A DNA stretch of 64,000 bases, taken from assembly GCA_963730915.1 (NCBI GenBank), contig CAVSTR010000004.1, forward strand, positions 215,014 through 279,013. Reading direction: 5' to 3'. Below are positions 35,764 to 52,762 of this stretch, in pieces. This DNA comes from an uncultured Gemmatimonadales bacterium (lineage in GTDB: Bacteria; Gemmatimonadota; Gemmatimonadetes; Gemmatimonadales; GWC2-71-9). Within the stretch, counting starts at the first letter, position 1. Every line of letters begins with the position of its first letter. The notes beneath the pieces are model-generated. The model saw only the letters and a program-made list of their open reading frames with translations, was not told the DNA's origin and searched no databases. The position numbers and the translations under genes were made by a program.

Positions 35764-35863
35764 TGATGGTGATGGGGGTTGGCGCTTCGCCGTAACTTGC
35801 CAAACGCCTCCCAAGAAACGAAGGGCCTCCGACGTGGAGGCCCTTCGTTCTTGTGGCTCACAG

Positions 35864-35904
35864 AGGCACCGGTCGGAATCGAACCGACGAATGGAGGTTT
35901 GCAG
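35864..35904 (-). repeat. partial tRNA-Cys copy 1 (3' half, att-like direct repeat)
   Basis: AGGCACCGGTCGGAATCGAACCGACGAATGGAGGTTTGCAG matches 52691-52732 with one substitution and a 1-nt deletion. It is preceded by the hairpin GGGCCTCCGACGTGGAGGCCC (35823-35843). Confidence 0.75.
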
Positions 35905-36815
35905 TTCTCGGAGGACTTTCGCGGAGCGTTGCGGCCCTTGCGAATTTGTGACGTGAATGGACGGTTAGCTCAACGTAGCACTCCGTAAGCTTTGCAAAGA
36001 TTTGTGTCCTCTCTTGGGGAAATCTTCCCAACACCTTCCCACTCCATCAGCCTAGAAGAGCGATTGCAGGCGCCGAGCGAGAGTTGTGAAACACCTCGGC
36101 AGCTATCAGAGACGAGGTGCCGACGTTAGCGCCACGTAGAGAACGGTTCGGATTGGTTCGTTATGGAGCGCAGTCGATAGCCAGCGCTCTCCATTGCGTG
36201 CAGGATTGTAACTGGCGTTTCCAAACCATTTCAGATACTGCTGGCAGAGTTTCGCTGCAGTCGGGACCGCCAGACGCGCCGAATACCTGCGGTAGGTCTC
36301 ATTAGCTCCTGAACCGAAGTGTTGAGGTGGCCCTCCGGCTGAAGTGGCTACAATGTCCCCTCCTGCGCCGAAGGATCCGTGCTCTCGGCCGGTGGACCAG
36401 TGTACCAGTACCCAGGACCAATGGCCGGCCGCAAACAGAGGGCCTTCCGGAGAACGTTGCAGAGGCTTACGCTAGACATGCTAACTATCTACCACCCCGA
36501 CAAGGCGTGGACCGATTTCATCACCTGCCTAACCTAGAAGCAGCGAGGTCAGGTAACGGGGTCAGGTAACAAGGAAGGCATCATCGAGCTGGCCACTGGC
36601 GATAGCCGGTTGCAACTCGGTGCGCTCAAGTCGCGCCTGCCTGCGGCATAGCGAGAGCTTGCCAGAGGCTGCATGGAAGTCGCGAGTGAGGATTTCATTC
36701 AGAGCTGCCGGGGTGCGAAATGCGGCCACACGGCGGGAGCGAGTCGTCTGGCAATCGTCCTCTCATGCGACGCAATCCTTCGCCCCCCTCAAGAACGACT
36801 GCCTTCGGAGAGGCC

Positions 36816-38797
36816 ATGAGGCTGCCCGGGTCCTGGTCGTGGCAACGCGGCTCCCTGCTTGCAGCCGCGATCTGTGCGTCCGTTGTCACCTGCGCCACGA
36901 CGGCCGCACGGGCCCAGGACTGGCCGGTATTTAGCGGCGACCTTGCGGCCACCCGATACTCGGCAGCGGCCGAGATCACCCGCAGAAATCTCGCTCGGCT
37001 CGAGCTGGCATGGCGGTGGCGGCCGGACGAGGCGCCTGTCCCGCGAACCGACTCGACCCAGCCCGCCGTTCCGGGGGCCTTCGAGTCCACGCCGCTTGCC
37101 ATCGGCGACACGCTGTACGTCGTGACACCCTACAGCTCGGGTCGTCGCGCTCGAGGCGACCGCGGCACTGGAGCTCTGGTCGTACGATCCGGAGGTCTAT
37201 CGGTACCGGCAGTGGGGCCACAGCCGCCGTCGGCAGATCACGCATCGCGGCGTAGCCGCCTGGTCCGACGGCCGCTCCCGTCGGATCTTTCTGAACGCCC
37301 GATGGCGGCTGGTGGCGCTGGACGCGGCCACCGGCCAGCCGGTGCCATCGTTCGGGCGCGGCGGTGACGTGGACCTCACTGAACATCTTTCACGTCTCGT
37401 GCTCTCGTTTTCACTACGGCGGCACGTCGCCGCCCCTGATCGTCGGTGACATCGTCATTGTCGGCAGCAGCGTCGGTGACGATCTCATCGATCCGGATGA
37501 TCCGCCTGGGGACGTGCAGGCGTTCGATGCTCAGGACCGGTCGTCATCTTTGGACATTTCGCACCATACCCCGAGCGGGGGAGCCCGGTGCCGAGTCATG
37601 GCGCGACGGGAGCGAACCGCAGTGCGGGCCATGTCAACGTCTGGGCGCCTATGTCCGCGGATGAGAAGCGCGGTCTGGTGTACCTCCCGGTCAGTGGCGG
37701 TCAGCAACGATTACTATGGAGGCGCTCGCAAAGGCGAAAACCTGTTCGCCGAATCGATCGTCTGCCTCGAGGCACGTACCGGTCGGCGGGCTGGCACTAT
37801 CAGATCGTACATCACGGATCTGTGGGACTACGATCTCGCGTCTGCGCCGTTGCTTGCGACCATCCGTCCGTTCGGAGAGCCGGTCGACGTCGTGGTCGTG
37901 CTGACCAAAACCGGCTACACGTTCGTGTTCGATCGGGTGACCGGCCGGCCGGTCTGGCCCATCGAGGAGCGGCCGTGCCGGCGAGCGACGTGCCCGGGCG
38001 AAGAGGCGTCGCCCACGCAGCCGTTCCCGTGAAGCCTGCGCCGTTCGCCGCCGGGTCGGCTTCGGACCCGAGGACGTGGTGGACTTCACGCCGGAGATCC
38101 GTCGCGTGCCCTCGCGCAACTGCAGTACCGCTGGGGGCCGCTGTTTTTGCCGCCGTCGCTCCGCGGCACGATCACGTCACCCGGCTGGATCGGCGGCGCG
38201 GGGTGGGGAGCGGGGGCGTCTACGATCCGGAGACGGGGACGCTCTACGTGAAGGCGACCAACCGGCCGACGCTGGTTCGTCTCCACAGTCCACCGGCGGC
38301 AGCGGCCGTTACGTCGGCGAGCTGGCCAATCTGTCGGTCTTCGTCCCGGTCGGGCGCGGGCTGTATGCGGGTGGTGGAAGCCGGAGACGCTCGTCAGAAT
38401 ACCGCTCGCCAAGCCGCCCTACGGCACGCTCACGGCGATCGACCTGAACAGCGGCGAGCACCGCTGGCAGGTGACCGTCGGCGACGACAGCGTGGTCCGG
38501 GCCAGCCCGGCGCTGCGCGGGGTGCCGCTCCCGCCGCTGTTGGGCGCCGCGGGCGCGGCCGGGGGCATCGTGACGGCGGGCGGTCTCGTCTTCATCGGCG
38601 GCGGCCACATGCTCTACGCGCTGGACAAGACGACCGGCAAACGCTCTGGGAGGCGCGCGCGGGGGCTTCGGTGCCCTCGCGGGGTGCCGATGACGTACCG
38701 AACGCGCGGTGGAAAGCAGTTCGTGGTGGTGGCGACCGGGCGTCGGGAAAGCAAGGCGGAGCTGGTGGCCTTCGCGCTCAGCGAGCCGCCGCGTTGA
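36816..38797 (+). pseudogene. PQQ-dependent (glucose/quinoprotein-type) dehydrogenase, more than 10 frame switches
   Basis: Signal peptide, then QDWPVFSGDLAATRYSAAAEITRRNLARLELAWRW, the classic PQQ-DH start. The continuation hops between three frames (HYGGTSPPLIVGDIVIVGSSV; HLWTFRTIPRAGEPGAESW; VNVWAPMSADEKRGLVYLPVS; WHYQIVHHDLWDYD-like; VVVLTKTGYTFVFDRVTGRPVWPIEERP; GGLVFIGGGHMLYALDKTTGK; GGKQFVVVATG). Confidence 0.8.
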
Positions 38798-51518: not shown

Positions 51519-52234
51519 ATGAGCTTTCGCATCGCCTGTCGTGTATTCGCCGGGGCCGCAGTGCCAGGCATAGTCGGCTGTCTTGGTCTCGGCCCATTCT
51601 CATCACACCTGGTTACGGCAGGCAATCCGACCCTCCGATTCGAGGTTTTTTTCGCCGGCCACACTCAGGGTCGGGGTACTCTCGAATTCCTTACCGGCCA
51701 GACGCGTAGCGTTGCGGGTCGAAGGCCATGGGCGCACTGAGGCCGACGGCAGCTTCCGACTCGACCAGGTCGTGACGTTCGGAGACGGTGCGGTAGAGAA
51801 GCGGACGTGGCGGCTAGTGAAGCGCGACTGGCAGTACCTATACCGGCAGGCTCAGCAATGCGGACGGAACAGTGTCTGCGGAGGTGATTGGCAACAGATT
51901 CCATTTGCGCTATCTAATGCGACAACCGGCCATTTACATGGAGCAGTACCTCTATCTGCAGCCGGATGGCCGGACGGTACTCAACTTGGCGACGATTACA
52001 GTGGTCGGCCAACCGTGGGCAAGACTTACCGAGGAAATCACGAGAGTAGATGAGCCCGACCGGGATCGAGAAGGTAGCGTTCACATCGGGCACATAGAAA
52101 CTCATCTGGTCGCACAGAAAACCGCTGGATGCCTGGCAGCGTTACTTACCAGACCTCATCGGAGCGACCATGCCCGCCCATTTCTCCACGATCCTGTGCG
52201 TGTTCGCCGCTGGACTCTATGCAGCCGGCGCTAG
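51519..52234 (+). pseudogene. DUF3833-family lipoprotein, two frameshifts; 3' end uncertain
   Basis: MSFRIACRVFAGAAVPGIVGC (lipobox)...LRFEVFFAGHTQGRGTLEF in ORF 51519..51740. RVEGHGRTEADGSFRLDQVVTFGDGAVEKRTWRLVKRD in ORF 51583..52053. VIGNRFHLRYLMRQP...YLYLQPDGRTVLNLATI in ORF 51872..52234. Confidence 0.6.
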
Positions 52235-52673
52235 CGATTCCCGCCTGGCGGGCCCCGGAACGTCCGGCCCCCGTCCGGCGCCGGCTTGGGACAACTCCAG
52301 CTGGCTCAATGGCGATACGGCGATACGCCTGGACCAGCTCCAGGGCAGGGTGGTGCTGCTCAACTTCTGGGTGTTCACCTGTGGCAACTGCACCCGAACC
52401 CTGCCCTCGCTGATTGCGCTCGATAGCGTCTACGGCTCGCAGGGCCTGACGCTCCTCGGCATCCACACACCTGAGTTCCCTCCATATGCAGGCGAGCACG
52501 ACCGGAAAAACCTGGCTCAGGCCCTCGTCCGCTATGGCATTGCGTACCCCAACGCCCAGGATAACGACAGCCGCACGTGGAACCGTTACAGCATTCGCTT
52601 CTGGCCCAGCTTCGTTCTTATCGACAAGCGCGGGTTCATTCGCTACGAAGGGCCTCCGACTTGGAGGCCCTAA
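52170..52673 (+). CDS. thioredoxin-like (TlpA/DipZ C-domain type) redoxin
   Basis: Signal peptide, then VVLLNFWVFTCGNCTRTLP...GLTLLGIHTPEFP...YPNAQDND...WPSFVLIDKRGFIRY. The last codons (EGPPTWRP*) are encoded by the tRNA-flank hairpin. Confidence 0.8.
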   Translation: MPAHFSTILCVFAAGLYAAGASDSRLAGPGTSGPRPAPAWDNSSWLNGDTAIRLDQLQGRVVLLNFWVFTCGNCTRTLPSLIALDSVYGSQGLTLLGIHTPEFPPYAGEHDRKNLAQALVRYGIAYPNAQDNDSRTWNRYSIRFWPSFVLIDKRGFIRYEGPPTWRP

Positions 52674-52690
52674 GTCGTTGTGGTTCAGAG

Positions 52691-52762
52691 AGGCGCCGGT
52701 CGGAATCGAACCGACGAATGGAGGTTTTGCAGACCTCTGCCTTACCACTTGGCTACGGCGCC
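52691..52762 (-). tRNA. tRNA-Cys (anticodon GCA)
   Basis: Hand-folded: GGCGCCG-TA-GCCAAGTGGTAAGGC-A-GAGGT-CTGCAAA-ACCTC-CATTC-GTCGG-TTCGATT-CCGAC-CGGCGCC-T. It has a 7-bp acceptor, 5-bp anticodon and T stems, and a TTCGATT T-loop. CCA is not encoded. Confidence 0.9.

Follow-up and report, generated by a model that had tools for sequence, protein, structure and literature searches.

How does a single tRNA gene come to be followed by about 20 kb of inserted genes, between which fragments of that same tRNA gene recur? This question is raised by a stretch of 64,000 nucleotides (hereafter the window) from an uncultured soil Gemmatimonadales bacterium, in which the 3′ part of a tRNA-Cys(GCA) gene is repeated behind the intact gene. 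Gemmatimonadota are abundant soil bacteria of which few members have been cultured, and we know of almost no mobile elements described in them. Literature searches for genomic islands that occupy tRNA genes in Gemmatimonadota returned nothing. The locus is an integration hotspot behind tRNA-Cys, occupied by at least four small cassettes stacked head to tail, none of which carries a recombinase. The stack was probably built by successive integrations at the anticodon loop of tRNA-Cys, catalyzed by a tyrosine recombinase supplied in trans, with the newest cassette next to the tRNA gene and the older ones decaying.

The tRNA-Cys gene and its filled and empty sites

The only tRNA in the window is tRNA-Cys(GCA), at 52690-52762 on the minus strand (ARAGORN, start called at 52690/52691; Rfam RF00005, 68.9 bits). 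Its 3′ part, a core of 43 nt that reaches from anticodon loop to discriminator, recurs three times in direct orientation (Table 1). The partial copies begin with the first anticodon-loop base, tRNA position 31. In an alignment of the four regions they break from the gene at one and the same base: on the plus strand, TTGCAG is followed by TTCT in the copies versus ACCT in the gene, and beyond this point all three copies continue into a common module. A GC hairpin lies on the low-coordinate side of the intact tRNA and of all three copies. For the copy nearest to the gene the identity extends into the flank, 47090-47159 and 52663-52732 being identical at 70 of 70 nt. All these elements had been described in the original prediction, made from the DNA letters alone (a complete tRNA-Cys at 52691-52762, three direct copies with their mismatches, the 70-nt identity, the shared breakpoint and a GC hairpin 3′ of each copy), and they were confirmed, the core being extended to 43 nt. 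No core match appeared in 100 dinucleotide-preserving shuffles. A fifth, truncated copy of 27 nt, absent from the prediction, was found at 43487-43513 (six matches versus 0.38 expected). Attachment (att) sites in tRNA genes have been classified by sublocation (anticodon loop, T loop, 3′ end), and sites that begin in the anticodon loop and reach the 3′ end form an established class for tyrosine integrases (10.1101/2020.11.02.365908).

Relatives were collected by a protein-guided scan with the radical-SAM/B12 gene that adjoins the tRNA in the window (53200-54831). The scan gave 80 loci, all from metagenome-assembled genomes (MAGs) of Gemmatimonadales or Gemmatimonadota, with 75-96% protein identity. 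In several of them (L015, L017, L016 and L008) the site is empty: rpsD comes 130-750 nt after tRNA-Cys at most, with an FRG-domain gene behind it, whereas in the window rpsD lies about 20 kb from tRNA-Cys. Nucleotide synteny between the window and its relatives ends at 52944 and restarts at 32622 (blastn). This break and the empty sites together imply that the entire stretch from 32.7 to 52.7 kb is inserted DNA; the insertion had been anticipated, with a narrower extent (35822-52762) that has to be given up.

Other relatives have filled sites. L013 contains two partial tRNA-Cys copies, both from position 31, and L019, L039, L053 and L066 contain one each, also from position 31 and 1.8-8.5 kb downstream of tRNA-Cys. 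In L052 the match of the single copy begins at position 32, which leaves position 31 as the breakpoint in five of the six copy-bearing relatives. The cargo of these relatives is unlike that of the window and comprises LysR and aldo-keto reductase genes, TetR and tannase genes, a sigma-54 activator and a ferritin-like protein (Pfam, ten ORFs beside the att sites of L013 and L019). In the closest relative, L001, a homologue of the Big_2 gene of cassette 2 stands directly beside tRNA-Cys, and L001 therefore lacks cassette 3, the one adjoining the tRNA in the window. Relatives with zero, one or two segments at the same breakpoint thus exist, as expected if several elements had entered one tRNA gene site-specifically, and the empty and differently filled sites support that predicted history well. 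The outcomes named beforehand as refuting it were looked for and did not occur.

A metagenome scan for the junction between module and core returned 34 further contigs, all with the same breakpoint and some with two copies or with a copy and a full tRNA. As the same junction is found in 34 independent contigs, the repeats are not an assembly duplication, an objection already raised with the prediction. Across loci, only the att units are widely common (72-89% identity); the cargo is essentially unique. Where cassette DNA can be compared between species, it is more similar than the core genes are: the Big_2 gene is 85% identical to its L001 homologue versus 78% for flanking core genes, and a TetR gene remnant with its module is 88.8% identical to L013 over 268 nt (blastn) versus 70-84% for core blocks. 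This difference hints at horizontal spread of cassette DNA after the species diverged.

The attP-like unit and its possible mobilization

Besides the core, the junctions have a larger unit in common, which was defined by alignment of nine junctions from five genomes and then of 34 distinct junction sequences; in all, 43 junctions besides those of the window contain it. In tRNA orientation it comprises two direct repeats (TGGGAAGGTnnTGGGAAGGTT), a partly conserved GCCGAAAAGGACGCAAA stretch, a variable part, GCAAAG....GCAAAAG, and AGAA ahead of the 43-nt core. After the core come a spacer, the GC hairpin and a T-run, and in many copies one further TGGGAAGG repeat past the hairpin. Nearly all metagenome copies have the start of the double TGGGAAGGT repeat 131-132 nt ahead of the junction. 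The window contains five exact TGGGAAGGT sequences, each at a junction module and on the minus strand. The conserved module had been noticed before and assigned about 250 nt; its length is about 135-190 nt. Between the motifs the sequence has diverged to 61-71% identity while repeats and spacing were kept, and outside the core the units of a single array share only 61-83% identity. The hairpin stem covaries, for example CCTCC/GGAGG versus CCACC/GGTGG (RNAalifold, eight units). No other conserved fold emerged from these eight units, and Rfam matched no structured RNA beyond the tRNA. The junction, searched for with and without the double repeat, gave no match in viral contigs, nor did the att unit in plasmid and phage collections.

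The unit looks like a DNA recombination site whose core is flanked on either side by predicted protein-binding repeats of the arm type, and its terminator looks as if it served the tRNA once a cassette has integrated. In attP sites of the lambda type, arm repeats on both sides of the core are bound by the N-domain of the integrase. The sequence architecture here fits this model, with the double repeat 131-132 nt upstream and the single repeat after the hairpin.

Two further observations concern the surroundings of such units. Double P-arm repeats without a recognizable core were seen in L018 (12136-12187, right after the tRNA terminator) and in L012 (13916-13974, 1.9 kb downstream), and have the look of att units that have decayed or lack cargo. 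In addition, seven metagenome ORFs near junctions (in L081, L087, L098, L099, L101, L110 and L112) encode an OmpA-family lipoprotein. These copies are only about 67% identical and lie at varying distances from the junction; they may represent a common cassette or a lineage-specific neighbour.

What the sequences show are the repeats with their common breakpoint, the polymorphism of insertion and the conservation of the site architecture; which class of enzyme acts, that it acts in trans and in what order events took place is inferred. Each cassette, as a circle, would carry one attP-like site made up of a P arm, the 43-nt core, its own spacer and terminator and often an extra TGGGAAGG. Strand exchange within the anticodon loop (CTGCA...) would be the work of a tyrosine-type integrase whose gene would lie elsewhere, whereby the incoming cassette would rebuild the tRNA and provide its terminator; the hairpin at 52650-52670 would accordingly stem from the newest cassette. 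The displaced 3′ half and all older cassettes would be pushed away from the gene, position would reflect age, and deletions within the stack would fuse or collapse cassettes, as at 43487-43513. Decay indeed increases with distance from the tRNA: the core matches at 43/43, then at 42/43, then with one substitution and one deletion, and cassette 1 has the most broken genes. The cassettes measure 4.0-7.2 kb in the window and 1.5-8.5 kb across the whole set and contain ordinary cargo genes. Since none has a recombinase, the enzyme must either act in trans or have been lost.

In the three intervals of the window, Pfam searches covering essentially all coding space revealed no PF00589 domain or other recombinase, and no integrase signal came from ten small ORFs next to the modules even at E<=10. 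Every integrase had been predicted to be degraded; in the window neither an integrase nor a remnant of one was found. The candidate remnant that had been named, 43275-43484, was rejected, as it encodes the C-terminal end (43 residues) of a regulator of the TetR family (93% identity to the intact TetR of L013). Among the relatives, the ten ORFs next to att sites in L013 and L019 contain no recombinase according to Pfam. Batch Pfam searches of 82 and 81 ORFs of related loci, in which families with a single member stay hidden, showed no recombinase family with at least two members. Lastly, phmmer searches with five recombinase seeds (XerD, Cre, lambda Int, gamma-delta resolvase, phiC31 Int) against 13.6k stop-to-stop ORFs had one true match, a pseudogene in L006.

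This pseudogene belongs to a 1.8-kb insert (L006, 11986-13903) that contains, in this order, genes for a cupin and for TetR and a frameshifted fragment of a tyrosine integrase (PF00589, E=1.1e-4, TGLR box present). The insert lies upstream of the intact tRNA-Cys, is bounded by a duplicate of tRNA positions 1-35 and has the opposite polarity. CTGCA of the anticodon loop is the sole overlap between its identity block and those of the cassettes, a pattern that fits strand exchange at this place, and the element shows that tyrosine integrases use the tRNA-Cys anticodon loop in this clade. Its homologues in the protein database are three short metagenome fragments. A hidden Markov model built from these homologues matches L006 only, and no relatives were found in viral contigs.

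Several points weigh against mobilization in trans. A cognate integrase was not found: the rest of the window has no recombinase, and none was detected in or beside the cassettes of the 114 other loci (80 related loci and 34 metagenome contigs), where sensitivity is limited. In a control, phmmer gave just 4-14 bits between known distant tyrosine recombinases, so that sensitivity outside the window was low. No circular or excised form of a cassette was observed. The L006 element differs in polarity and has no TGGGAAGG repeats; its enzyme is therefore not established as the one that moves the cassettes. Moreover, not all inserted DNA fits the scheme, as a distal att site or core remnant was searched for and not found for the segment at 32.7-35.86 kb. 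The broken genes, too, could in part be assembly errors. Widespread error of this kind is unlikely, because the long ORFs outside the insert, which are housekeeping genes, are intact.

A more far-reaching version of trans mobilization sees the locus as an integron-like platform for gene capture at the tRNA-Cys anticodon loop. Integrase-less cassettes with a standard attP unit (TGGGAAGGT arms) would be inserted, excised and exchanged between species by a dedicated recombinase. The gene for this recombinase may be located elsewhere on the chromosome, unlinked to the array, or be carried by a rare helper element, and the cassettes may be a self-standing, trans-mobilized class and not decayed islands. 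Such a platform can be entertained as a tentative possibility, with a good deal of doubt.

Alternatively, each segment may have arrived with its own integrase that was later deleted, leaving immobile husks comparable to cis-mobilizable elements (CIMEs) whose att sites resemble each other by descent. The broken genes of cassette 1, the split DUF4331 gene, the scar at 43487-43513, the core-less modules of L012 and L018 and the one integrase pseudogene at tRNA-Cys in L006 all agree with such a fossil. Precedents exist as well: formation of CIMEs by decay followed by accretion is documented in streptococci (PMC5704250), and tycheposon islands contain degraded integrases along with stray partial tRNAs (10.1101/2020.12.28.424599). 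However, none of about 14 fully bounded cassettes yielded a detectable remnant of an integrase, and cargo genes begin within tens of bases of the P arm. The persistence of repeats and spacing in modules that are otherwise 61-71% identical looks like selection on the site, and cassette DNA resembles its counterparts in other species more closely than core genes do. A purely fossil array is thus considered unlikely. The prediction had left the choice between a fossilized array and mobilization in trans, and each is right in part: old cassettes are decaying, and att modules are conserved across many genomes.

Still less probable is an exchange driven by homology, in which the roughly 250-nt unit would act as portable homology for RecA-dependent swaps, duplications and losses, cassettes would enter by transformation or another route of transfer, and no dedicated recombinase would be at work now. 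The units are long enough for this, no integrase was found, the 70/70 identity between the flanks of copy 3 and of the tRNA could reflect gene conversion, and internal deletions show that general recombination and deletion are active at the locus. Yet homologous exchange explains neither the origin of exact direct repeats reaching from anticodon loop to 3′ end, nor a single breakpoint at a canonical integrase sublocation across many genomes, nor three same-strand repeats at fixed distances from this breakpoint; units that are 61-83% identical outside the core would also be a poor RecA substrate. An artefact, whether assembly duplication of the tRNA region or fortuitous similarity, has next to no probability: the source is probably metagenome-assembled, as all relatives are, but shuffles gave no match, the copies differ in flanks and genes, and the same architecture recurs in many independent short-read and long-read assemblies.

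Cassettes, cargo and neighbouring genes in the window

The features of the array are listed in Table 1. Pfam assigns nearly all coding space of the three intervals, and their domain content differs, in agreement with the predicted unrelated cargo. They had also been described as richer in AT, which does not hold: their GC content of 0.55-0.72, a range also given for cassette 1, lies on both sides of the window mean of about 0.63. Nor are there only three segments, as a collapsed fourth cassette next to the 43487-43513 fragment and a further insert of 3.2 kb (32.7-35.86 kb) have to be added.

Table 1. Coordinates of the tRNA-Cys gene, its partial copies, the cassettes and their genes, from rpsD to tRNA-Cys. 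P′ repeat, repeat past the hairpin.
Feature	Position	Strand	Evidence or remark
rpsD, conserved left anchor	31966-32628	+	Pfam, tblastn, blastn
Extra inserted DNA, no recognizable distal att copy	32700-35863		synteny break versus L008, L015, L006
PEMT methyltransferase in extra inserted DNA	32946-33434	-	Pfam
Fragmented-looking surface protein, Big_1/Big_9 domains and Gly-rich repeat	33937-35763	+	Pfam
Partial copy 1	35864-35905	-	one substitution, one deleted A; then hairpin 35823-35843, degenerate P′ repeat 35805-35814
Cassette 1, oldest bounded (by predicted order)	35906-43065		P-arm module 35906-36045, repeats 36022-36030 and 36033-36041
PQQ-dehydrogenase, cassette 1	36720-38856	+	Pfam; broken over at least 3 ORFs
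Kelch protein, cassette 1	38778-40686	-	Pfam; broken
PMT_2-type glycosyltransferase, cassette 1	41060-42702	-	Pfam; broken
Partial copy 2	43066-43108	-	42/43; then hairpin 43024-43045, exact P′ repeat 43005-43013
Collapsed cassette	43109-43487	-	P-arm module, repeats 43225-43233 and 43236-43244
LysR C-terminus-like stretch, about 13 codons, collapsed cassette	about 43250-43290	-	alignment
TetR C-terminal remnant, collapsed cassette	43359-43487	-	tblastn 3e-21, 93% over 43 aa to intact L013 TetR
Fifth, truncated att copy	43487-43513	-	27 nt of T-arm region, 1 mismatch; abuts broken TetR gene
Cassette 2	43514-47116		subtilase-Kelch and Big_2 genes
Big_2 surface protein, cassette 2	43539-44585	-	Pfam, tblastn, blastn
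Subtilase-Kelch protein, cassette 2	44931-47000	+	Pfam
Partial copy 3	47117-47159	-	43/43, 0 mismatches; then hairpin 47077-47097, P′ repeat 47056-47064
Cassette 3, nearest tRNA, newest (by predicted order)	47160-52689		P-arm module 47160-47300, TGGGAAGGT-type repeats 47275-47283 and 47287-47295
DUF6702, cassette 3	47452-47961	-	Pfam
HupE/UreJ_2, cassette 3	47924-48529	-	Pfam
TPR protein, cassette 3	48540-49685	-	Pfam
DUF4331, cassette 3	49927-51341	-	Pfam; two overlapping ORFs matching N- and C-terminal profile parts
Unknown ORF, cassette 3	51583-52053	+	
AhpC/TSA, cassette 3	52170-52673	+	Pfam
Terminator-type GC hairpin immediately 3′ of intact tRNA	52650-52670	-	stem covariation across genomes
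Repeated core, tRNA 3′ part from anticodon loop to discriminator	52690-52732	-	43 nt; attL side of array

Two features of the stack bear on its history. Firstly, the TetR gene of the collapsed cassette is broken exactly at the 27-nt att fragment, which is read as the probable scar of an internal deletion that collapsed a cassette of the TetR/tannase type. Secondly, cassette 3, the collapsed cassette and L013b have modules in which about 13 codons resembling the C-terminus of LysR lie on the distal side of the repeats, and an intact LysR gene occupies this place in L013a. The alignment suggests common ancestry of the modules, with turnover of the cargo.

Some genes in the inserted DNA are themselves irregular. 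The split of DUF4331 in cassette 3 is either a frameshift or an assembly error. The surface protein at 33937-35763 is divided over three ORFs and is possibly a pseudogene or a phase-variable gene; a 15-nt tandem repeat (34999-35123) encodes a Gly-rich linker inside this protein, which has CarboxypepD_reg/Big_1 and Big_9/cadherin-like domains. Outside the array, L008 and L002 lack, at the syntenic position, a second variable segment of the window (about 26513-30712). This segment contains an M61 peptidase-PDZ gene (26776-28644), an unknown ORF and a gene for a short GluRS-like tRNA-synt_1c protein (29391-30320).

Just upstream of the 5′ end of tRNA-Cys, four tandem GGGCGGTA octamers (52776-52809) form a G-run pattern that is a candidate quadruplex, and reverse complements of the octamer (TACCGC, GACCGCC, TTACCGCCC) follow 50-100 nt further on (52857-52882). 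Together they bracket the start of a small ORF (52810-53196, plus strand, 128 aa) without a Pfam match, which is kept beside tRNA-Cys in nearly all relatives at 47-82% identity. A paralogue of this ORF with about 40% identity adjoins the FRG-domain gene in L011, L017, L051 and L056.

Significance and comparison with known systems

The locus shows a route by which accessory genes are acquired in this phylum, as about 20 kb of genes for surface proteins, proteases, redox and metal-related functions came in via one tRNA gene. The junction of AGAA with CTGCAAAACC, together with the TGGGAAGGT repeats, provides a sequence handle with which cassettes can be catalogued in metagenomes and the missing integrase can be sought. 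If the cassettes are indeed mobilized in trans by an unlinked enzyme, they would constitute a natural cassette-capture system outside the integron family, and a potential tool for site-specific integration in a phylum that is hard to engineer.

Integrons are comparable by analogy only, as they too hold an ordered stack of integrase-less cassettes with one site each, the newest nearest to a fixed chromosomal point. Here, in contrast, the cassettes are multi-gene with genes in both orientations, and the insertion point is a tRNA anticodon loop. An actual integron was ruled out. No intI gene lies by the array, the neighbours of the tRNA being the 128-aa ORF and the radical-SAM/B12 protein, and attC sites were rejected, as RNAalifold on the eight units finds covariation only in the terminator hairpin.

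Tycheposons of Prochlorococcus (10.1101/2020.12.28.424599) likewise target tRNA genes, bear cargo and occur in tandem, with partial tRNAs in between and older elements pushed inward. They are defined by a hallmark integrase (a tyrosine or large serine recombinase) and replication genes, neither of which is present here, and the likeness is one of description only. Tandem islands at tRNA and tmRNA genes of the Islander type, such as those at ssrA of Dehalococcoides (PMC3146451), are similar as well. In both cases the target is regenerated at one end and displaced 3′ fragments remain as direct repeats. The array has the intact tRNA at one end, the direct displaced fragments, the canonical breakpoint and the empty-site polymorphism of a tRNA island. 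However, Islander-type islands are defined with an island-borne integrase, whereas no cassette here has one, and the cassettes here are of small size, with 4-7 kb in the window and as little as 1.5 kb elsewhere.

CIMEs are flanked by att sites, lack genes for integration and transfer and are stacked by accretion at the 3′ end of a target gene in streptococci (PMC5704250). The array matches this operational definition, in that att sites are kept while integration and transfer genes are absent. CIMEs are, however, found beside or derived from a recognizable integrative and conjugative element (ICE) or integrative and mobilizable element (IME) that supplies the integrase in cis. Here the window has neither a partner of this kind nor leftover pieces of int, xis or conjugation genes, and none were detected in the 114 related loci, with limited sensitivity outside the window. 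The host also belongs to a different phylum. Altogether, the locus is filed as a tRNA-anchored accretion array of a familiar kind, akin to tandem tRNA islands and CIMEs and here located in Gemmatimonadota; the one feature that could set it apart is the combination of a well-conserved attP unit with cassettes that lack an integrase throughout.

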